Below, one piece after another: positions 4,435 to 63,310 of a stretch of DNA of 64,000 nt (positions are counted from its first letter, which is position 1; each line of letters starts with the position of its first letter). The notes beneath the pieces were generated by a model, which saw only the letters and a list, made by a program, of their open reading frames with translations, searched no databases and was not told the DNA's origin. A program made the position numbers and the translations under genes. This DNA is from Leucoraja ocellata (taxonomy: Eukaryota): the NCBI GenBank assembly GCA_036785375.1, contig JAWMAR010000246.1, positions 2,480,001 through 2,544,000 of the forward strand. The letters run 5' to 3'.

Positions 4435-4995
4435 AGAAAATTGGAGAATTCAATGTTCATACTGTTGGGTTGTAAGCTAACCAAGTGGAATTTGCATATG
4501 GCCTCACTGGCAATGGACGACGTCAGGACAGAAAGGTCAGTATGACAATGGGAAGAGAAATTAAAAAGGTTAGCAGCCAAGAGATCCAGTAGGGCCTAGT
4601 GGACTGAGCACAAGTGTTCAGCAAAACATTTGCTGAGTCTACACTTGGTCTTGCCAATATGCAGGAGGCCACATTGGGAACACCAGATACAATAGGTGAG
4701 ATTAGAGAAGGTGCATGTGAACCTCTGTCTTAGCTGGAAGGACTGCTGGGGTTCCTGGATGGAGGTGAGGGAGGCGGTATAGGAACAGGTATTACATCTG
4801 CAGATGTAAGGGAAAGTACCTAGGGAGGGGATGGCTTGGGTGGGGATGAGTAAATCAAATAACAGTCTCTGCAGAAGGCAGAAATGAATGGGTATGGGAA
4901 GATGTGACTGGTGGAATCACATTTGATGTGACAGAAATGTTAGAAGATTATATGTTTTGTGGGGTGAGCGTTGAAGACTAGGGGAACTCTATCTA
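4435..4995 (-). mobile_element. Penelope-like element ORF remnant (Cys-rich linker plus GIY-YIG endonuclease C-terminus)
   Basis: Decayed GTFP...CNTC...QRFTCT.SNL.YCI.C.QCGLL.IG.T and SH.HTDLSVL...LQPNSMNIEFSNF (ORF 4380..4580). Confidence 0.8.
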
Positions 4996-5724: not shown

Positions 5725-5900
5725 CTTCACTCAACATCACCGTCTATATCTCATTTCCCTTTCCCCCAACTCTCAGTCTGAAGAAGGGTCTCGACCCGAA
5801 ACGTTACCCTTTCCTTCTCTCCAGAGATGCATGCCTGAGTTACTCCAGCACTTTGTGTCTATCTTTGGTTGAAACCAGCATCTGTAGTTCCTTCCTACAC
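5725..5900 (+). mobile_element. Penelope-like 3' end with hammerhead motif (5778-5805)
   Basis: ctgaagaagggtctcgacccgaaacgtt followed by the family body and the ccagcatctgtagttcc tail. Confidence 0.78.
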
Positions 5901-6884: not shown

Positions 6885-7740
6885 GTTTACTTTACTTTAT
6901 TGTCACCTGTACTGAGGTGCAGTCAAAAGGTTTTGTTGTGTGCTAGCTAGCCAGTCAGCAAAAATACTAGGCAATGTTTCGGGGCCGAATGAGTCTGAAG
7001 AAGGGTTTCGGCCCGAAACGTTGCCTATTTCCTTCGCTCCATAGATGCTGCTGCACCCGCTGAGTTTCTCCAGCTTTTTTGTGTAACCAGCAAAAATACT
7101 ATATGTGATTACAATTGAGCTATCCACAGTGTATAGATATATGATAAAGGGAATAACGGTTAGTGCAAGATAAGGTCCAGCAATGTCCGATTAAAGATAG
7201 TCCGAGGGTCTCCAATGAGGTAGATAGTAGCTCGGGGCCGCTCTCTAGTTGTTGATAGGATGGTTCAGTTGCCTGATAACAGCTGGGAAGAAACTATCCC
7301 TGAATCTGGAGGTATAGTTCACATTTCTATACCTCCAACCTGATGGGAGAGGGGAGCAGAGAGAGTGTTGAGACATCCTTGATTATGCTGGTGGCCTTGC
7401 ACTGGCAGTGTGAACTGTTAATGGATTCAATGGAAGGCAGGTTGGTTTGTGTGATGGTCTGGGCTGCATCCACAATTCACAGCCTCTTCTTAAAATCTTT
7501 GATAGAGCTATTCCCAAAACATGCAGTGATACATCCTGAAAATATGCTTTCTACAGCGCATTTGTTGAAGTTGGTGAGAGTTGTTGGGGACATGACAAAC
7601 CTCTAAGGAAGTTGAGGCATCGGTGTGCTTTTTGCCCATTGCTTCGATATGGGTAGTCAAGGACAAGATATTGATGATATTTACTCCTGGAAACATGAAG
7701 CTTTCAACCAACTCTATTTTGGCACCGTCAATGTACATGG
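6885..7740 (-). mobile_element. Rex1-like LINE 3' fragment
   Basis: ORF 7508..7738 (IELVESFMFPGVNI...TTHI). The 3' end GTGACAATAAA plus microsatellite lies at ~6885-6905. Confidence 0.75.
6970..7087 (+). mobile_element. Penelope-like mini-insertion with hammerhead motif, nested in a Rex1-like 3' end
   Basis: Same family sequence as 29912-30148, with a short inverted 5' segment and no tail. 14-bp TSD CAGCAAAAATACTA (6956-6969, 7088-7101). Confidence 0.85.
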
Positions 7741-9850: not shown

Positions 9851-10419
9851 TGCCATGCCGTCAGACATGCCAGTTTGTATTGGCCTACATCACCAGGGTC
9901 ATGGCTTGTTCACTAGGCGCTCATGCATGTTGTCAAAACACATAAAGATGCATTGTTCATGGTTGCCCTTTTTTTTGCCATTTGTCCAATTTTTCATAAT
10001 TATTCTAAGATATAGTATAGCTTCCGAGTTCTGCTGGATGATTATATCCGTTGCACCTTCACACATTTGCTTCTTCAGCTGCTCTGAAGGGAGACAGAGC
10101 AAACGTTCAGGAAAATAGATGCTCATTCAACGGGGACTGACAAATGGATTCTAATGCATTTTGAAAATGATGGAAGTAGTTTAAATTTGGGGTGTGCCAA
10201 TCTTTTGTTTCATTTAATCCAGTGAAGATCAGAGGCAAAAACAAGGAAGTGCACATGCTGGTCAATGAAAAACAACAAAACGTGTTGGAGTAGCTCAGTG
10301 GGTCAGGCAGCATCTCTGGAGAACAGGGATAGGAGACGTTTTAGGTCAGCGCCCTTCTTCAGACTGGCAGTTACTCAGTTGCAGCCATAAAAGAGATCTG
10401 GTATTGTCGACAGTAAGAT

Positions 10420-27286: not shown

Positions 27287-27899
27287 GGATTTATGAAAGG
27301 TAAATCATGTCTGACGAATCTTATAGAATTTTTCGAGGATGTAACAAGTAGAGTGGATAAGGGAGAACCAGTGGATGTGTTATATCTGGACTTTCAGAAG
27401 GCTTTCGACAAGGTCCCACATAAGAGATTAGTATACAAACTTAAAGCACATGGTATTGGGGGTTCAGTATTGATGTGGATAGAGAACTGGCTGGCAGACA
27501 GGAAGCAAAGAGTAGGAGTAAATGGGTCCTTTTCAGAATGGCAGGCAGTGACTAGTGGGGTACCGCAAGGCTCAGTGCTGGGACCCCAGCTATTTACAAT
27601 ATATATTAATGATTTGGATGAGGGAATTGAATGCACCATCTCAAAGTTTGCGGATGACACTAAGCTGGGGGGCAGTGTTAGCTGTGAGGAGGATGCTAGG
27701 AGGCTGCAAGGTGACTTGGATAGGCTGGGTGAGTGGGCAAATGCATGGCAGATGCAGTATAATGTGGATAAATGTGAGGTTATCCACTTTGGTGGCAAAA
27801 ACGGGAAAGTAGACTATTATCTGAATAGTGGCCGATTAGGAAAAGGGGAGATGCGACGAGACCTGGGTGTCATGGTACACCAGCCATTGAAAGTAGGCA

Positions 27900-28037
27900 G
27901 GTTACACAGAAAAGCTGGAGAAACTCAGCGGGTGCAGCAGCATCTATGGAGCTCCATAGATGCTGCTGCACCCGCTGAGTTTCTCCAGCTTTTCTGTGTA
28001 ACCTTCGATTCTCCAGCATCTGCAGTTCCCTCTTAAA
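27900..28037 (+). mobile_element. Penelope-like mini-insertion: perfect 104-bp palindrome plus 34-nt tail
   Basis: Arms 27900-27951 and 27952-28003 with no loop, tail 28004-28037. 15-bp TSD CATTGAAAGTAGGCA (27885-27899, 28038-28052). Confidence 0.88.
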
Positions 28038-28677
28038 CATTGAAAGTAGGCATGCAGGTGCAGCAGGCAGTGAAGAAAGCAAATGGTATGTTAGCATTCA
28101 TAGCAAAAGGATTTGAGTATAGGAACAGGGAGGTTCTACTGCAGTTGTACAGGGTCTTGGTGAGACCCCACCTGGAGTATTGCGTACAGTTTTGGTCTCC
28201 TAATCTGAGGAAAGACATTCTTGCCATAGTGGGAATACAGAGAAGGTTCACCAGACTGATTCCTAGGATGTCAGGACTTTCATATGAAGAAAGACTGGAT
28301 AGACTCGGCTTGTACTCGCTAGAATCTAGAAGATTGAGGGAGTATCTAATAGAAACTTACAAAATTCTTAAGTGGTTGGATAGGCTTGATGCAGGAAGAT
28401 TGTTCCCGATGTTGTGGAAGTCCAGAACAAGAGGTCACAGTTTAAGGATAAGGGGGAAATCTTTTAGGACCGAGATGAGAAAAACATTTTTCACACAGAG
28501 AGTGGTGAATCTGTGGAATTCTCTGCCACAGAAGGTAATTGTGGCCAGTTCATTGGAGAGAAGGCAGTTACAGGATACTGAGTTGGATAATCAGCCATGA
28601 TCATATTGAATGGCGGTGCCTGCTCGAAGGGCCGAGTGGCCTACTCCTGCACCTATTTTCTACGTTTCTATGTTTCT

Positions 28678-29865
28678 ATGAGTTGGTCTTACAGGACAGG
28701 ATTATAGTTAAGGGCCACAAGGCAGTGGTCCCAGCTGTCGCCCGGGAGAAGTATTTCAACACTGTCCACAGGGGCCACCCCAGTATGGAGGCAACCCTAC
28801 GAAGGGCATTAAGCATGTTTTACTGGCCTGGTATGACCAAGTACATACACGAAAAAAACGAAGTTTGTGCCGTCTGCATAAGCCTGACATCATCAGAAGC
28901 AGCCTTTACTGCCGCATCCGGCCCCTCCTCTCTCGTGGTCCACGTTAGTCACCGATATATTCAAATGGCATGGGAAACACTATCTGGTTCTTGTTGACTC
29001 TTTCTCGGGCTTGTTTGAAATTGACTTACTTCAAACCATTACTTCTGAAGCGGTTATCAAGAAGTTGCAGAGTCACCTCTCCATACACGACTCCCCTGCA
29101 CATATTCTGTCCGACAATGGTAGACATTTCACCAGCCAAGCTTTCAAAAACTTTGCAAACCAATGGGACTTTCGACATATTACCAGCAGCCCTGAGTTCC
29201 CGCAGTCCAATGGACTCGCCGAACGCGCTGTCCGAAGCGCAAAACAACTAATGGAGCAGTCCTACCTTGTAAAATCGGACGTGTACCTGGACCTGCTCAA
29301 ACTAAGGAACATTGCTCGGGATCCCATACTGAGTTCCCCAGCCCGGTGCCAAACCCGTGCTCCCCTGCCTGTGCCCCAGCAGCGTCTGCAGCTGCAAGTT
29401 CGTTCCGGGCCGGCAGTCCAGAAACAACTACAATTCAAACCTGACAAGCAGAAATGCTTCTTTGACAAATCCAGCAAGCCATTTAAACCTCTTGCACGTG
29501 GACAAGTGGTTCATCTCCAGACCAACAAAGGCCATGCACGTCAGGGTCACGTCTACGTCCCTGCCAAAGAACCGCGCTCTTATCTGGTTGAAGCGGATGG
29601 AGCCATCTACAGACGCAACCGTCAACATATCCTTCCGGTGAAGGAACCACGTCCTGCGACTCCGTATCCAGATGTCTTGCATTTCGTATACTCTCCCACG
29701 GTCGGCCCCGCGGACCCACTGCCAACTAACGTTTCCACCACAGCCTCCCCGCGATGTTTGGCGACCAGCTCACCTATCTCATCACGCTCCCTGCCTGTTG
29801 TGTTGCCGGTTGTTTCCCCAATTCCCTCCCAATTTTCTACGGAAGGAGGTGAGACGGATTCATAA
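28678..29865 (+). pseudogene. Gypsy integrase, resuming after the CR1 insertion
   Basis: ELVLQDRIIVKG...HRGHP...YWPGM...CAVC (HHCC), LSDNGRHF, PQSNGLAERAV, YRRNRQH. Joins the piece at 22520-22702 (GWPDK...PYFLV). Confidence 0.92.
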
Positions 29866-29911
29866 CGCACACGGGCCGGACGGGTTTGCAGGCCACCCAT
29901 TAGATACCGTG

Positions 29912-30148
29912 GGTTACACAGAAAAGCTGGAGAAACTCAGCGGGTGCAGCAGCATCTATGGAGCGAAGGAAATAGGCAACGTTTCGGGCCGAAACCCTTC
30001 TTCAGACTGATCGGGGGTGTCTGAAGAAGGGTTTCGGCCCGAAACGTTGCCTATTTCCTTCGCTCCATAGATGCTGCTGCACCCGCTGAGTTTCTCCAGC
30101 TTTTCTGTGTAACCTTCGATTCTCCAGCATCTGCAGTTCCCTCTTAAA
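29912..30148 (+). mobile_element. Penelope-like mini-insertion: 96-bp inverted arms, 11-nt spacer, 34-nt tail, hammerhead motif on both strands
   Basis: Arms 29912-30007 and 30019-30114, tail 30115-30148. 14-bp TSD CATTAGATACCRTG (29898-29911, 30149-30162). Confidence 0.9.
30019..30050 (+). ncRNA. Minimal type I hammerhead ribozyme motif (mirror copy on - strand at ~29976-30007)
   Basis: CUGAAGA core, stem II GGGU-UUCG-GCCC, GAAA core, self-complementary AACGUU in place of stem III, putative GUU cleavage triplet ending at 30048. Confidence 0.75.
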
Positions 30149-30247
30149 CATTAGATACCATGATTTTGTGTAATTTTACAATCTTTCCCAAATGTGTTAT
30201 TAACATTCCACCTATATTGCTTAGCCACCGATGCTTCTTTTGTTTCT

Positions 30248-30461
30248 AAAAGGAAAGACGTAGATTGGCTATTTCATACTAGCCAATTATAGTGCTTGTT
30301 AGTAGTGACTCCGCTTAGTATGTGCTTTATATAACCAAGAGCTTGCCTACGCTAGTTAGTACGAGTAGCTGCTAGGAAATGCATGTCTGCTGATCCTTGC
30401 TGTAATTAGATTTAATAAACATGTGTTGTATCTTTATATGTGTTCGTGTCACCTCATTACA
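30248..30461 (+). repeat. Polypurine tract (30248-30258) and 3' LTR (30259-30461)
   Basis: AAAAGGAAAGA followed by the LTR copy, which starts CG (mutated TG), ends TTACA and is followed by TSD AGTCT. Confidence 0.95.
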
Positions 30462-31089
30462 AGTCTGGTTAGGTTTGAACTCTCAAAGTGTTCTGTTTTA
30501 AGATCGAGAATGTCCCAATTTTATTATTTTTGTGCGATTTGGAATTTAGTGTTTGCTTTTAGCTCACATCCATTTGATGAACCATAAATGTCTAAAGACC
30601 AGTTTCAGACCAATGTAAACTGCAAGTTCCTGTGCTGATAGATTCACACCTATTGTCAACATTAAGTTCAGGCTGCACTGACCCCTAAAGTTGGATTAAC
30701 AATTTAGATTTCCTGCCATTCAAAAACAGTAACACATGGTCTCGAAATAAAGTGATAGGCTAAACTAAAATAAATGATCTGCAGTGAAACATTGTGATCT
30801 AGAACACAATGTAAAAGACGATGGAAACAGAAACAGTAATCATTTCTGAAAGAGAATCTGATGTATTCTTCTAAAGGTGACATTTGCAGAGCTGAGGTAA
30901 ACAACGGGGGAGCAGGAACAAATGGATAACTCTTTAAAAGGCACGATAGAGACATTAATGTTGGAATAGCTATTTCTGTGCTGTGGAATTCTAAAATCTG
31001 TAACAAGCGATGCTCTCTCACTTGCTGCCCAATATTCACCATGATTAGTTGGTGTCAGAGGTTTTCCACGCTATCATTCCGCGGCCATT

Positions 31090-31450
31090 CCCCGCGCGGC
31101 TTGGAATGGCCGCGGGACTCTGCGAGCGCACGCCGGGGGCTCCAACATCAAGACCCGGTGTGCGACCTCGCACCACCCGGCGTGGCTTTAATGGCCGCGG
31201 GACAATCGCCATCGCCAGCCGGGGGCTTTGACTTTGACTCTGTCATCGGGGGGGGGGGGGGAGTGCAGTGGAGAGATAAGTTTTTTTTGGCCTTCCATCA
31301 CAGCAATGTGATGGATGTTTATGTAAAATGTAAATCATGTTGTGTCTGGGGTCTATTTGTTGTAATGTATGGCTGCAGAAACGGCATTTTGTTTGGACCT
31401 CAAGGGGTCCAAATGACAATTAAATTGACTCTTGACTCTTGACTCTTGAC
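31090..31450 (+). mobile_element. 5'-truncated copy of the same GC-rich retroposon with (TTGACTC)n tail
   Basis: Matches 18575-18905 almost base for base. Confidence 0.7.
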
Positions 31451-31454
31451 TATC

Positions 31455-32555
31455 ACTGAAAGACATTTTCATTAGGCGAGAAATAGTATTGGGTAGGCTG
31501 ATGGGACTGAAGGATGATAAATCCCCTGGGCCTGATGGTCCTCATCCCAGGGTCCTCAGGGAGGTGGCTCTAGAAATAGTGGACACATTGGTGATTATTT
31601 TCCAATGTTCAATAGATTCAGGATCAGTTCCTGTAGAAAGGAGCGAGAGAGAAAACGGGGAATTACAGACCAGTTAGCCTGACTTTGGTGGTGGGAAAGA
31701 TGCTGGAGTCAATTATTAAAGAGGTAATAATGGGGCATATGGATAGCAGTAAAAGGATTAGTCCAAGTCAACATGGATTTATGAAAGGGAAATCACGCTT
31801 GACTAACCTTCTGGAATTTTTTGAGGATGTGACAAGTAAAATGGATGAAGGGGTGCCAGTGGATGTAGTGTATCTAGACTTTCAGAAAGCCTTTGATAAG
31901 GTCCCGCACGAGAGACTGGTGACTAAAATTAGAGCACATGGTAGGGTGTTGACATGGATAGAAAATTGGTTGGCAGACAGGAAGCAAAGAGTAAGAGTGA
32001 AATGGTCCTTTTCAGAATGGCAGGCAGTGGCGAGTGGAGTGCCGCAAGGCTCGGTGTTGGGGCCACAACTGTTTACCATATATATTAATGATTTGGAAGA
32101 GGGAATTAGGAGCAACACTCGCAATTTTGCGGATGATACAAAGCTGGGTGGCAGTGTGAACTGTGAAGAGGATGTTAGGAGGTTGCAGGGTGACCTGGAC
32201 AGGTTGAGTGAGTGGGCAGATGTGTGGCAGATGCAGTATAATATAGATAAATGTGAGGCTATCGAATTTGGCGGCAAAAACAAGGGGGAAGATTATTATC
32301 TCAATGGGGTTAGGTTAGGTAAGAGGGAGGTGCAGCGAGGCCTGAGCGCCCATGTACACCGGTCACTGAAAGTTGGCTTACAGGTACAGAGAGAGTTAGA
32401 TAGAGCTCTAGGGGCTATTGGAATCAAGGGATATGGGGAGAAGGCAGCCACGGGTTATTGATTGGGGCCGATCAGCCATGATCACAATGAATGGTGGTGC
32501 TGGCTCAAAGGGCTGAATGGCCTCCTCCTGCACCTATTTTCTATGTTTCTATGTT
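31455..32555 (+). mobile_element. Internally deleted CR1 LINE
   Basis: ORFs 31489.. and 31685..32461 (RT motifs fused directly to the C-terminus) and a (TTTCTATG)n tail. Confidence 0.92.
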
Positions 32556-37859: not shown

Positions 37860-39840
37860 AACTCAGCATTTGACTTCCAGATAAGGACATGGCAAAAAGT
37901 CAATTTCAAATAGAAGAAAATGAGATGTAACAATTCTTATTTGGATGAATCGATGGAAAACCTAATGAGATTAAAAGTTAATGGGATCTATTGACCAGCA
38001 TCCAAGGGTCTTAAAGGAAGTGGCTGCAGAACAGAACCATTGGCTACATGATCAAAACTCATAGTTGGGAAGATACTGCCTGTTTAGGAAATTGCAAACA
38101 TGACCTCTTTATTTAAGAAGGGAGAAAGACAAAAAGCAGAAAACAATAGGCCAGTAAATAATTTCAGCAAGATGCTAGTTGAAATTTAGGAAAATATGGC
38201 AGAGGGGGAATTACCTTTAGTCAACATGCTTCCCAAAGAAGGGAACATCATGTTTGATAAATATTCTGGAGTTATTTGAGGAAAGTCAGGTCTATATGAG
38301 GGAATATATATATATATATGTTACACTTGGATTTTCAGAAGGCATTTAGTAAGGTGCCACATAAAAAACATGGTACACTGGATAAGATTTCATCGATGGG
38401 TAAACATAGATTGAGGGTAGATTATCATACTGAACAAATTGAGTTTTTTCAGACTGGAAACATATGGAGTGCTATGGATCAGGTCTTATCCCTCAATTAG
38501 TTACTTTCCATATGATTTGGAAAGAGGTAGAGTTCACAGTATCCACGTTTATTGATGAGGTGAAAGTAGATTGGGGGGCATGCTACAATGAGACTATTGA
38601 GATTCTGAAACAGAATATAGATAGGTTGAGTGAATGGGCAAAGTCTTTACAAATGGAATTTAATATAGGAAAGCATGAGGTCATACACTTTTGTAGAAGG
38701 AATTAAAAGGGAGATTATCTAAATTAGGAGAGACTACAAATGAGTGGAGTACAGAAGGATCTAGGTGTTCTTATGCATGAAACACTAAATGTTAGCAGAC
38801 AGGTACAGCAAGTAGTTAAGACAAATGGCACATTGGTCTTTATTCATAAAGGGTTGGAGCTTAAGAAGAAAAGTATTGTTACAATTATACAGCATGTTGG
38901 TGCGGCTGCACCTGTTGTACTGAGTATCACGACTTTAAACTTTAGAGATACAGCGCAGAAACAGTCCTTTTAGCCAAACAAGTCTATGCCAACCAGCGAC
39001 CCCCATACACTAACACTATCCTACATACTAGGGACAATGTAGTTTTACCAAATCCTCTGTACGTCTGTACGTCTTTGGAATGTGGGAGGAAACCAGAGCA
39101 CTCAATGAATACCAACACAGTCACTGGGAGAATGCACAAACTCCATACAGTCATCAGTAGTCAGGATGGAAGTCAGGTCTCTGACACTATAAGGCAGCAG
39201 CTCAACCGCTACACCATTGTGTTGCCCCTCTGCCATTGGGCCACCACTATTGTTCCACAATATTAAGAAAGAATATACTCGCATTGGAAGCAGTCCAGAA
39301 GAGAGTCAGCAGACTCATTTCTGGGAAGAGCCGATGTCCTATGAGGAGTGGCTAAAAAAGTTACATCTACATTCTTTGGAACTGAGAGAATTAAGGGTGA
39401 TCCCATTGAACCACATAAAAGTCACAGGGGCATGATAAGATAGATATTGATATTTTTCCAAACAGGGACATAATTATAAAATAAGAAGGATGTCATTGTA
39501 AACTGAGGTGCAAAGGAGTGATTTTTTTACAGGGTGATGAATCTCTGTAATACTCTGTAACAGAGTGTTCTGAAGGTTGAATCATTGAAGGTATTTAAAG
39601 AGGAGGTAGATAAGTCTTTGCTAGATCAGCTTATTGAGGGCTGTGGAACTGGCAAGGAAACAGATCCACTGAGATACTCTAGCTTTTTGTGTCTATCTTT
39701 GGTTTAAACCAGCATCTGCAGTTCCTTCTTAAACAGAGTTGAGGATCAGGGCAGATCAGCCACAATCAGATTGAATCATGGGCCTGTCTTGGGGCTAGGT
39801 ACTGTAGCCTTCTCCTAATTCTACTGTCTTGCATTCTTAA
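37860..39840 (+). mobile_element. Old degraded CR1 ORF2
   Basis: ORFs 38318.. (LDFQKAFSKVPH), 38464.., 38740.. (QKDLGVLMH). Confidence 0.8.
38935..39232 (-). mobile_element. V-SINE (HE1-like) nested in old CR1
   Basis: Head ggtgtagcggttgagctgctgccttatag and V core ggtttcctcccacattccaaagac. Confidence 0.82.
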
Positions 39841-43062: not shown

Positions 43063-45209
43063 TAATTAACTGTGCCCCCCCCCCCCCCCCTTAATCTGCA
43101 TCTCCCTATTATTTGCCATGGATTGTACTGTTTCTAATAATCTTCTTCTCCTCCACTACAATCAGCCTGAAGAAGGGTCTCAACCCGAAACGTAAGCTTT
43201 CCATTTTCTCCAGAGACGCTGTCTGAACTGCTGCATTACTCCAGAACGTTGTGTCCTTCACTGGGATGCATTTATCTGCAGATTTATATTGATGCCAGAG
43301 TGAAGGGAGAAAATGGAAAGTACTGGACTCCAAGAAAGGATTGGGATTAAATAGTTGCTCTTGCAGAGAACTGGCACCCACTTGATCAGCCAAATGGCAT
43401 TTTCCATGAATCTGATTCCAGCTACTGTACATCTATTGCTGTTGAATAGCCACATTGTTGAAATTATATGGTGCTTTGGGATGGCAAAGGGGCAAATGTT
43501 TTGTTCCTTTAAATTAATGAGCTGTAGCTATAACTGGAATGTAAAATGGTTCAATGAGAACACTTGTGAGATTTCCTTATTTTGTTTCATTATAGTAATG
43601 CTTATTTTGGGCTACTATTTTTGGCATTTTGCCTTTGGTGCCTTATTTGAAAACATTTGACTATCACGAATAGGGAAATGTCTGAACCTGAACTATTCCA
43701 CATTTATATAATGTATTTCAAAAAGGATAAACAGGGAAAAACATAATTGGCTGCATCAATTTTGAGTTTGGTGTTTATATGAAAAGGCAAAATGGAAAAT
43801 GGGAACAGAATCAATTCTTTATTACACCAGTGAACTGAAGGATCCCTTAGGATCTTAGAGGTTCATATCACAAACACGCACATGATGCCCTTCAAGCAAA
43901 ATGGCTAAATAGTCAATTTCTCGGGAGTGGAATTAATTATTTTTTAAAATCTGGCAATTATATGATTTTTTTGTTTAGTTGAGTTTTCCTAATGATTTGA
44001 ATGTAAACATGATTGCTTCAGATTGAAGGCATTTGGCTGAATTTCCTATGCAGTCAACTAAATTGATCACTCAACAAGCATTGCTCAATTGGACTGCAGC
44101 CCATGTGCCAAAATAGTACTGACATTAATAGATTTTAAATTTGTGCTATTACAATTTGAAGGAACATGTTTTTTTCTCTCCCTCAGAATCCCAGCTCCTA
44201 TAATTTTGACTTTCCTCAGACATAATCCAGCCCACAATTTTCATGTCGCTGGTAGTGCTTCAGTCATTGCCACAGAAGACGCTGAATTAAATTGTGATTC
44301 ACGTTCAATTTGCTTTCCTTTTGTCAGTTCTTTAAGAGTGAACCATTTATGTGCAGATTCGAGTTGAAGCAACTCTACCCTGTGTAGAGTTGTGAGTGAA
44401 TTTAATTTCTTTACAAAGGAAAATTTAGAACTGGCAAGATCATAGAACTTTAAAATGTGAGAGGCATTGAAGACTAAATTTGAACAAACTATTTAGTGAA
44501 ACTGAGCACAGAATTTAAAATAAGATATACAGTCTTGAAATTTGAAAAGCGAATGGAATAAAACTGAAGTAGCTATGATGAGCAGATTCTGTGACAAAAA
44601 AGGTGTATGTACCTTTACAAAAACTAAGCTGGAGATGGTCCCCCATGAATTCTCTGTTTAAGAAATGATTGACCGAACTATGAAGGTCATATCAGCTTCG
44701 GTTGACTAATTCGATTTCAGAATGGTGTTAGAATTGATACAGTTGGTCTCAAGAGGACCAGACAAGGGGAAATGGACCAGTATTTTGATTTCTGAACATT
44801 ATTCATCTATTATCGAGCATAATTCAACATTATTGACCTGCATCAGAATTGTATGAGTGGGTCTCTAAAGGGAGAAAGTCTAGATGATTGGCATATTTTT
44901 CCAAAGGACATGCTGCAGTACTGTATGTAAACTTGTATAACTATCACAGTTCAATAAAAAATATTATTAGCTATTATTTCATTTCCATGCCTTGGTGCCT
45001 AAACAAATATTGTACCCTCGGTTAAAATAATGGTCAGAACCATTCTTCTTATTTTTTTTCTTAGAGCAATGACTGACTCATTGTCAAGTAGTTCTTGCAC
45101 AATTACATGCTTAAATATATGTATATGCATATATATTTGTATTAGAGTATTTGAGAGCAATCTAACTAGGTGGTTTTTGGGTATCATTCACCTGATCTGA
45201 ATTGGCAAA

Positions 45210-48824: not shown

Positions 48825-49440
48825 GGTCCGCTGGATCTCCCAGTTGATAACCATTTAACTTCCCTTCCCATTCCCGCACTGACCCTTATGTCCTGGGCCT
48901 CCTCCATTGCCAGAGTGAGGCCACACACATACTGGAAAAACAGCAGCTCATATTCCACTTGGGTAGTTTTCAACTAATGGTGTGAATATTGAATTCTCCA
49001 AATTTAGGTAACTTCTAATTAACCCTCCCTCTCTCACCTTCTCATCTCCCCGACATCCACCCTCTATCTTCCTCCCCTTCCCTGACCTGGGCCCCACCTG
49101 GACTCCCATCTATTTCCCCCTCCACCTGTCCCCCTCACTCCTGGTTTCCTCCTTCTGGCTTCACAATCTGCAACTTCTCAAACTTGTCACACACCTACTG
49201 TTCTTATCTCTGGCCTTTGCTCCATCCATCTCCCTGTCAAAAAACCCTCCTCATCTGTGTCGATCTGGCACCTGTCATGCATTGTCCTGCTTCATCCCTT
49301 TTCCAGCTTTGGTCTCTCCCATCAGTCTGGAGAAGAGTCTTGACCTGAAACATCATGTTCCCCAGAGATGCCGCCTGACCTGCTGAGTTATTCAAGCACT
49401 TTGTGTCCTCTTGTGTACTCACTAGCATCTGCAGTGCTTT
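48825..49440 (+). mobile_element. Penelope-like element: GIY-YIG C-terminus, 3' UTR, degenerate hammerhead and tail
   Basis: DLPV.NH...SHSRTD..VLGLLHCQSEAT..LEKQQLIF.LGS...NIEFS, then cagtctggagaagagtcttgacctgaaac and a ctagcatctgcagt tail. This links the hammerhead repeat to a Penelope ORF. Confidence 0.82.
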
Positions 49441-58683: not shown

Positions 58684-58920
58684 TCTACATTTTATCTGTT
58701 TGCTTTGTTGTTAACTTCTACAAGTTAATAATGACATATTCTACATTTTCCTAATCTCCATCCCCTTTGTCCTAGTTTCACATCTTACACTTTCTTATCT
58801 TTGCATCTCCCTCTCCCCTGACATCAGTCTGAAGAAGGATCTCGACCCGAAACAGCACCTGTTCCTTCTCTCCGGAGGTGCTGCCTGTCCCAATAAGTTA
58901 CTCCAGCATGTTGTGTCTAA
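58684..58920 (+). mobile_element. Penelope-like 3' end with degenerate hammerhead motif (~58829-58856)
   Basis: cagtctgaagaaggatctcgacccgaaacagcacc plus family body. Confidence 0.72.
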
Positions 58921-59637: not shown

Positions 59638-60129
59638 GTAGCTTGTTTGTTGCAGCATTGATAGACATTGTTTTTGCTGGGAAGTGCACCAATTCCCATA
59701 TCTCAGGAGGCACCTTTTGGCCATGGCAAACACCAAAATTGAAATTCATCGCTGCACATTATGTATTGGCAAAACTTCTGGCTGAGAAGAAATTATCTGA
59801 GTTTCAAGATCTCCGAGCTGGCACAAAATTCACGGTCCTTCCGGCAGTCCATGATCACTGTTCTAAGGTATGCTTCCGAGACTTGGACAGCCTTTCTCTG
59901 ACATCTCAAGCCATTGGAAAGATACTAGCAATATCATACAGTATATGTAAAATCCTCCAAATGCACTGCAAAGATAAGAGAATCAGCCTCTCGCTTAACG
60001 CAACACCCCCAGTATTGAGGACCAAGTTACTATCAGCTACCGATATATGCTTGAATTCCAAAACAGATTTGGGCATTTGCTCGTATCTTATTCTGTGTTC
60101 ACCTGGTAATTTTCTTGTGCATAATTATC

Positions 60130-61040
60130 AGGTAGACACAGGATAAGATACGAGTAAATGGCCAAAGCTTCCGCAACATCACCACTGGACAAAGTGGGGG
60201 AAAATGATTGAGATGGTTTTGAAAACATTTAGAGCATGAATTGAGAGAGCAGAGAGTACCCGTGTGGAGAACACCAAAACTCCCATCACCCATCTCCTGC
60301 CCCATCTTAGGAAGGGACTTTTGGTTGGGAAATGAACCTGGCCAGGTGACTGGTGTCTCAATGGAAGAGCATTTTGAGGATAGTGATCACAACTCCATAA
60401 GTTTTAAGATTGGTTTGAAAAGGGATAAAGCTAGACCTTGCAGGAAGGGACTAATTGGAGTAAGGCAAATTACGTTAATATCAGGCAGGAGCTCAGGAGA
60501 GTACATTGGGGCAGATGTTATGGGGCACGTCAACATCTGACATGGAGGAGTCATTTAAAAGCCAGTTAATTAAAGTTTAGGACTGGCATGTTCCAGTGAG
60601 GAAGAGTCCAACCTCGCCTTATTGCTAAAATCTCCCGATGCAGGCAGCATTGTGATAAGCCTCTTCTGTACCTTTTCCAAAGCTTCCTCAACTTTCCTGG
60701 TATGGGGCGAACAGACCTGTACACAATACTCCAAATGTGATCTAACCAAAGTCCAATAAAACTGCCACATGACTTTCTGAGTCTTATAATCAACAGGCTG
60801 ACAGATGAAGGCAAGCATACCATATGCCATCTTTACAATTCTATCTCCTAGTGTTGCCACACACAGGGAGCTCTGGATTTGGATTCTGTATAATCAATGT
60901 TGTTAGTGGTCTGCATCAACTGTATACTTTCCCCTCACATTTAACCTCGTACAGTGTAACACATCAGTCGTATTCAAATTAAATTCCATCAGCCATTTCT
61001 CCGCCCACTTCTGTAGATGATCTATATCTTGCCATATATT
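60130..61040. mobile_element. Two old CR1 fragments in opposite orientation (60130-60600 +, 60605-61040 -)
   Basis: GNEPGQV...EEHFEDSDHNSISF on +, and LVRSHLEYCVQV.SP on -. Confidence 0.75.
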
Positions 61041-63149: not shown

Positions 63150-63310
63150 AAAAGCCCAAAGTGCTGACGGAACTCTGCACATCAGACAGCATCTGTGGAG
63201 ACAAAGGGAAATTAACATTTCGGGTCTTTGTCTCCACAGATAATTCCTGACCCGTTGAGTTCCTCCAGCAGTTTGAGTTTTGCTCCAGATTGCAGGATCT
63301 GCAGTCTCAT
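63150..63310 (+). mobile_element. Older inverted Penelope-like mini-insertion
   Basis: Imperfect arms (atctgtggagacaaag / ctttgtctccacagat) and a tail ending tccagattgcaggatctgcagtctc. Confidence 0.6.

Follow-up and report, generated by a model that had tools for sequence, protein, structure and literature searches.

A 237-bp fold-back insert with head-to-head hammerhead-like motifs in Leucoraja ocellata belongs to the truncated complex insertions of endonuclease-bearing Penelope-like elements

The window, by which we mean the whole 64,000-nucleotide stretch of DNA that was analysed (located in G000:C246 of a 3.44 Gb genome), contains a 237-bp insert at 29912–30148, just behind the coding end of a decayed LTR retrotransposon whose relatives are 80–87% alike (Table 1). 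The two arms of the insert (29912–30007 and 30019–30114) are 96 nt long each and 100% complementary with 11 nt between them, and a 265-nt RNA made of the insert and its flanking repeats folds at −209 kcal/mol (z −29 against 200 shuffles). An earlier sequence-only reading had described a young, non-coding insert made of these two perfect arms, an 11-nt spacer and an unpaired 34-nt tail, bounded by a 14-bp target-site duplication, and most of this description stands. The flanking 14-mers (29898–29911 and 30149–30162) are identical at 13 of 14 positions, and a search with the left flank of the insert found an empty site 108 kb off on the same contig (L224), an inverted duplicate of the flanks that is 96–99% identical, insert-free and has a single left 14-mer. 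Because this site without the insert has one left-type 14-mer, the 14-bp duplication is real and its right copy is the mutated one, by a single CpG-type G>A change.

We number the element from the G of GTCTGAAG as +1. Both arms match a natural long copy (L161) with 0 mismatches, the right arm over 132 nt, in agreement with a young insertion. The apparent 11-nt spacer is misnamed: it is the left arm running on for 12 more bases that are templated according to L161, to 30019, where the left and right arms overlap by one G, and the sequence at 30008–30018 also precedes the ribozyme core in L160–L162. The tail is present as described, except that it extends to about 30150, its final CA being common to the tail and the duplication. 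The tail forms the beginning of the 5′ UTR in the full element, where ~35 nt separate its end from the ATG (tandem junctions of L158/L159/L220). The insert contains no direct repeats besides the target duplication; its arms lie head to head and form no tandem repeat.

Table 1. Features of the insert, its host sequence and related copies in the window (signed numbers are element positions)
Feature	Window position	Strand	Basis or remark
Third copy: arm +1 to +96 lacking the tail, plus short inverted piece; 14-bp duplication	6956..7101	+	Window repeat comparison
Second fold-back, same subfamily and tail: 54-nt arms joined at +44 and lacking the ribozyme core; duplication of 15 bp	27885..28052		Inside LINE RT frame
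Host: broken integrase-coding end of decayed LTR retrotransposon	28539..29865	+	Pfam rve E 6e-9, Integrase_H2C2 E 3e-10
Target-site duplication, left copy, 14 bp	29898..29911	+	Identical to single copy at L224
Left arm: inverted 5′-truncated copy, +96 back to −12, inner start site, tail-less	29912..30019	-	L161 identity, 12-nt run-on
Minimal hammerhead-like motif, left arm	29976..30007	-	Sequence and descriptor match; no Rfam match
Apparent spacer: last 11 nt of element 3′ UTR, belonging to left arm	30008..30018	-	L161
Right arm: +1 to +132, outer start site, stop at ribozyme's first base (commonest family stop)	30019..30150	+	L161, stop statistics
Minimal hammerhead-like motif, right arm; predicted cut between 30048 and 30049	30019..30050	+	Sequence, pair counts
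Tail: +97 to +132, between two reverse-transcription start sites	30115..30150	+	Tandem junctions; 5,893 exact matches
Target-site duplication, right copy, G>A at 30160	30149..30162	+	Comparison with left copy and L224

Besides the second and third copies in Table 1, the window holds older related Penelope ends that are 70–78% alike (5773–5897, 10245–10366, 39666–39735, 43161–43244 and 58809–58920), Penelope ORF fragments (4524–4989 and 48834–49004) and two decayed inverted repeats at 60065–60169 (78%) and 63151–63281 (70%). The last of these has the appearance of an old fold-back belonging to a related family; a duplication was looked for there and not found. Pfam gave no clear host gene in 15 long ORFs of the window, only retroelement domains and three weak sub-threshold matches.

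The Penelope origin proposed by the sequence-only reading, and its expectation that a genome search would find an autonomous partner, were both borne out. Among the first matches, the flanks of L005 and L010 contain an inverted frame with reverse transcriptase (RT) and GIY-YIG domains that runs directly into the same ribozyme sequence. An intact partner lies in L220 (G000:C1:8664380-8674379), a partial tandem made up of two units of 3,985 bp and a further 1.8 kb, flanked by 13-bp duplications; one unit has an intact 1,234-aa ORF, with 116 nt between its end and the same ribozyme sequence downstream. Pfam matches this ORF to RVT_1 (E 1e-6) and GIY-YIG (E 8e-4) with scores just below the curated cut-offs (28.6 vs 29.6 and 20 vs 22.6 bits), and among 7,989 candidates scored there are 599 homologues of the protein, which carry both domains, the best of them 54% alike over 99% of residues 500–1234. 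Residues 1101–1109 form a CX4CX2C linker, and a zinc-finger-like CX2-5CxxC linker between RT and endonuclease is given as the mark of Neptune elements (PMC8557442), so by this one motif the partner may be classed as Neptune-like. The hallmarks of endonuclease-bearing (EN+) Penelope-like elements are present: an RT + GIY-YIG ORF, a partial tandem, an inverted truncated copy, a one-sided tail and a target duplication. The C1 array itself, with ~2.5 units inside one 13-bp duplication, points to a multimeric or circular RNA template. Residues 175–500 of the L220 ORF are a long proline-rich low-complexity stretch with short repeats, which accounts for the protein being ~300 aa longer than most of its homologues. 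Further multi-unit tandems occur at C300, C1093, C265 and C8 (99.4–100% identity over the 1.7 kb compared, L220 included), and the unit spacing in C300, C265 and C8 is 3,946 bp, 39 bp less than in L220. Similar repeats probably occur in skates and sharks.

The core letters of the putative ribozyme are as the sequence-only reading gave them, with the cut predicted after 30048. The motif has a 2-bp stem I, CUGAAGA, an extra A, a 4-bp stem II with a UUCG loop, GAAA and a loopless palindromic stem III, and so contains what is expected of a minimal type I core (CUGANGA/GAAA, an extra base after A9, a stem II and a palindromic 15.2–16.2), apart from a helix I of only 2 bp in place of 4–5 bp. In 193 motif copies in the fetched DNA the pair closing stem II is U-G in 164 and U-A in 27, and in stem I only the pairs 2.1-1.1 (U-G in 145, U-A in 31) and 2.2-1.2 (G-C in 172) hold, the third being A-C. 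The catalytic fold costs 6.1 kcal/mol above the minimum, the stem III duplex is predicted at −5.7 kcal/mol, and single arms fold no more stably than shuffles (z −0.4 to +0.5). The Rfam search proposed earlier as a check gave no hammerhead family at E ≤ 10 in 28000–32000, only hairpin-shape miRNA matches below gathering scores; minimal hammerheads are said to need relaxed descriptors (PMC4209133). The same source describes low activity of minimal Penelope-like hammerheads even as dimers, as well as opposite-strand hammerhead pairs 100–700 bp apart in Schistosoma, and in an Anolis element cleavage needs protein and is dispensable for insertion (PMC11167929). The accessible part of PMC1636495 has nothing on GUU.

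It had also been suggested that a read-through transcript could fold either as a hairpin or as a ribozyme. Such a switch is not what the arrangement predicts: because the antisense arm is transcribed first on either strand, the motif would be trapped in the 96-bp hairpin of any read-through RNA, and the opposite arm is an antisense copy and therefore cannot serve as a dimer partner. Perfect hairpins of this kind within transcripts are likely a large putative source of dsRNA.

The hammerhead-core pattern has at least 27,878 exact matches in the genome, a 3′-anchored subfamily 32-mer has 7,107 and the tail has 5,893. Our sample of the family was the first 100 of the 7,107 32-mer matches, which lie on two contigs, represent one sequence variant and resolve into 79 events. 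An inverted arm is present in 26 of the 79, and extrapolation of that fraction to the 7,107 matches gives roughly 1,800 fold-backs of this single variant in the genome. Arm lengths range from ~30 to >1,900 nt, with 5′ ends from +63 to −1950, and either arm can be the longer one. In all 19 two-arm events with the 32-mer on both arms, one ~+96 arm is paired with one ~+132 arm, for which the chance expectation, calculated by hand, is 0.5^19 = 2e-6; six of the other seven fold-backs fit the same one-of-each pattern, one (L170) is unclassable, and none has two arms of a kind. The ribozyme core is retained on both arms in 10 of the 19 two-arm events, and head-to-head hammerheads are therefore routine in this family. 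Target duplications of 18 fold-back arms are 14–18 bp long (mode 15). The junctions vary among events, with the exception of one duplicated locus; those of L181, L183, L190, L193 and the window copy at 27951 are palindromic, and many others have fillers or no palindrome.

The 5′ ends themselves are unevenly placed. The sequence-only reading had expected ordinary truncation to give a continuous spread of lengths; the range is indeed wide, but it is not smooth, and there is a strong pile-up at the ribozyme's first base. We analysed 95 arms, after removal of three tandem-array arms and two duplicates, and 32 of these end at −7 to +5; counted as first-pass arms, 32/71 stop at the front edge of the ribozyme. 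The stop rate at −2 to +5 is 6.5% per nt (28 in 429 nt at risk), compared to 0.48% at +6 to +63 (24 in 5,040) and 0.25% at −8 to −200 (15 in 6,075), and Fisher p values against the two neighbouring zones are 4e-18 and 2e-23 when bases are treated as independent. The mode of the edge stops is G+1 rather than the A of an initiator-like TCAGT, with a spread from −7 to +5, and no clear cap-derived G was seen at edge-ending copies among the 95 arms. At the predicted cut (+30 to +33) there is no excess of cDNA ends (1 in 346 nt at risk), which speaks against a cleaved template.

Copies long enough to cross the edge a second time behave differently in two sets. In the young set, 28 of 30 fetched 5′-UTR-bearing copies (of 40 listed) reach +5 and none stops; merged to events, 0/22 long young events stop, against 32/71 first-pass arms (p 2e-5). 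For the older subfamily we took 30 of 40 listed copies, 28 of which have an upstream repeat; 20 reach +5, and 8 of these 20 ORF-bearing loci (the query copy included) begin exactly at the edge, or 6/14 after near-identical flank pairs were merged by eye. Tandem arrays cross the edge site repeatedly. One older-subfamily full-length copy, L151 (G000:C3:11555000-11563000), begins exactly at the ribozyme's first base. RNA reads from poly(A) and single-cell libraries are mostly 90–95% alike, and so possibly from a relative, and show no peak of beginnings or ends at +1 or +31; most run on into unlike sequence and hence come from dispersed copies.

The reading we prefer, to which we give a probability of about 0.85, is that the insert is the young 5′-truncated end of a Neptune-like Penelope element, likely twin-primed from two target strands, with the ribozyme as a passenger and the edge stop, though with less certainty, as an RNA start. 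The element's protein would cut both target strands ~14–15 bp apart, and a short cDNA would be primed from each of the free target ends. Of these two cDNAs, one would start at the inner RNA site (+96) and the other at the outer site (+132), giving the one-sided tail; here the pairing pattern is observed and the priming is modelled upon it. Copying of the right cDNA would have ended at +1 and that of the left at −12, and repair would then have joined them head to head through the one shared G observed at the junction. Since ends at the predicted cut are not in excess, the template would be uncleaved RNA, and the hammerhead only a passenger on it. For a related Penelope protein, in vitro work has shown that both strands are cut and extended, that copying begins at two internal sites, one at either end of the tail, and that the RNA used as template is uncleaved (PMC11167929); the same work reports no start-site difference between strands, so the strict one-of-each pairing has no explanation there. 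The edge stops most likely (about 60%) show where one class of template RNA has its 5′ end, and we infer that multimeric or circular RNA accounts for part of the longer copies. A mix of edge-starting RNAs and multimeric or circular RNAs explains both the young and the older sets. Counting against the RNA-start reading are the scatter of the ends with their mode at G+1, the lack of a clear cap-derived G, that no young long copy begins at the edge and that cDNAs may be more processive after 4 kb.

Several other explanations of these structures were considered. That the pile-up marks only a place where the enzyme stalls at an intrinsic front-edge roadblock (a fold, a bound protein or the upstream C-rich tract), or where the RNA is processed at a splice-acceptor-like CAG, seems unlikely to us, although it has some attractions. 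A pyrimidine tract and CAG directly precede the ribozyme and end one base inside the motif (L220:8125–8160, minus strand, which reads also as TCAGT), a Drosophila Penelope intron ends at the 5′ end of helix I (PMC4209133), and the older subfamily's second-pass stops (8/20) are close to the first-pass rate. A fixed roadblock nonetheless fails for the young set, because none of its 22 long events stops on the second pass, and the arrays go through the site again and again; stalling by a structure would moreover be expected on the 3′ side of that structure and not at the 5′ edge. RNA processing is at odds with the copies ending at +1, which share no upstream exon, and a spliced template was set aside for that reason and for the lack of any GT-AG joint among the joints listed from two sets of RNA reads (a further 135 and 24 joints lay outside the two lists).

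The inverted arm might instead come from a single cDNA that folds back at a palindrome and primes itself or switches template, perhaps while copying an antisense template. This was put forward for rotifer Penelope elements on the strength of palindromes at inverted junctions (PMC3846280), and several junctions here also lie on palindromes. Twin priming is what we infer from the products, and palindromic junctions would fit self-priming as well. Self-priming is nevertheless improbable as the general route, in view of the separate, defined start site of each arm (one of each in 19/19), arm 5′ lengths that differ both ways and the many junctions with fillers or no palindrome; in this insert the two arms were truncated at different points and overlap by 1 nt where they meet. 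The sequence-only reading had offered either a heavily truncated Penelope or a retrozyme-like satellite, and it is the former that the spread of 5′ ends and the variable junctions favour. We consider it very improbable that a separate non-autonomous satellite exists, one that would be transcribed and moved in trans as a whole fold-back or as a fixed short unit, even though the near-fixed 5′ end of 32/95 arms at the ribozyme edge yields many copies of ~96 or 132 nt and animal retrozymes have been proposed as derivatives of Penelope ends (bioRxiv 10.64898/2026.07.22.740005): the junction of this insert is found in 1 of 31 exact right-arm starts, the insert has no sequence of its own, being 100% identical to the long copy L161, it is not tandem, and the family's 5′ ends reach out to −1950. 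A fixed 5′ mini-exon or start at GGTG, shared by nearly all of the best matches in one search, proved to be an effect of query selection (only 31 of at least 27,878 core matches).

Within the preferred reading of a twin-primed Penelope end, a more specific scheme can be put forward tentatively, though we hold it to be somewhat doubtful. A protein dimer may cut a preferred 14–15 bp staggered site, always assigning one target strand to each RNA start site, and use two templates: a linear RNA from the ribozyme's first base, giving run-off stubs of 96 and 132 nt, and, for more-than-unit tandems that lack an edge stop, a unit RNA that is circular or multimeric and may be produced by the ribozyme.

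Target choice shows regularities of its own. Eight insertions in a 1,450-bp LINE stretch occupy only four positions (3, 2, 2 and 1: window 27885–28052, L170 and L189; L172 and L196; L143/L144 and L148/L149; L212), which makes 5 coincident pairs against ~0.14 expected by a rough hand estimate. These are independent insertions, because their arm structures differ and one case has the opposite orientation, and they suggest sequence-specific targeting of base-precise LINE sites. In the flanks of 88 sampled arms the first base past the outer site is A in 80% and that past the inner site is T in 62%, as in the RNA template, and positions 14–18 are T-rich, hinting at a symmetric target and at 1–2 nt of primer-template pairing.

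As a single locus the insert is ordinary, and its value is as part of a fossil record of Penelope copying. The genome combines an intact element of very recent date with two sharply defined start sites, strict pairing, a measurable stop and recurrent targets, and these lead to precise predictions for an in vitro assay like that for the Anolis element. The start and stop positions of such stubs bear on the Penelope copying cycle and on the ribozyme's job. Earlier publications already describe inverted truncated copies, tails at one end only and hammerhead pairs on opposite strands (PMC8557442, PMC3846280, PMC4209133), and a 34-bp repeat is on record too. The pile-up and the one-of-each rule were not found in the literature covered, which includes few subscription journals.

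Complex insertions of EN+ Penelope-like elements (PMC8557442 Fig. 2; Adineta Pen2a, PMC3846280; D. virilis Penelope, PMC2377424) have in common with this one the 5′ truncation, the adjacent inverted copy, a 30–40 bp tail at one end, partial tandems and a target duplication. The present insert differs in being only 237 bp long and in having no ORF, duplications in its family are longer and more uniform (14–16 bp) than the 8–10 bp of the rotifer elements, and the strict use of one of each start site and the ribozyme-edge stop do not appear in the accessible parts of those accounts. The Poseidon element of Anolis (PAc; PMC11167929) shares the two internal start sites bounding the tail, the cutting and extension of both strands, an uncleaved template and a pLTR hammerhead; its ORF starts inside the ribozyme with the sites 111–118 nt into the ORF, whereas the present element has both sites upstream of the ATG, within the 5′ UTR, and encodes a protein with a zinc-finger linker of the Neptune type. 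The minimal type I hammerheads of metazoan Penelope-like elements (PMC4209133) have the same CUGANGA + GAAA core, extra base after A9, G10.1-C11.1 pair and palindromic loopless stem III, with a helix I of 4–5 bp as opposed to 2 bp here (as in the D. virilis variant); older subfamilies have GUC as the predicted cut triplet, where this one has GUU. Non-LTR retrozymes (PMC7229834; bioRxiv 10.64898/2026.07.22.740005) are likewise short, non-coding, equipped with type I hammerheads and akin to Penelope ends. They are, however, head-to-tail repeats with canonical hammerheads that form circles (see also the review PMC6765202), whereas here we find neither head-to-tail hammerhead units nor a mobilised consensus of its own, but a head-to-head product at a single site; the insert belongs with the truncated complex insertions left by endonuclease-bearing Penelope-like elements.
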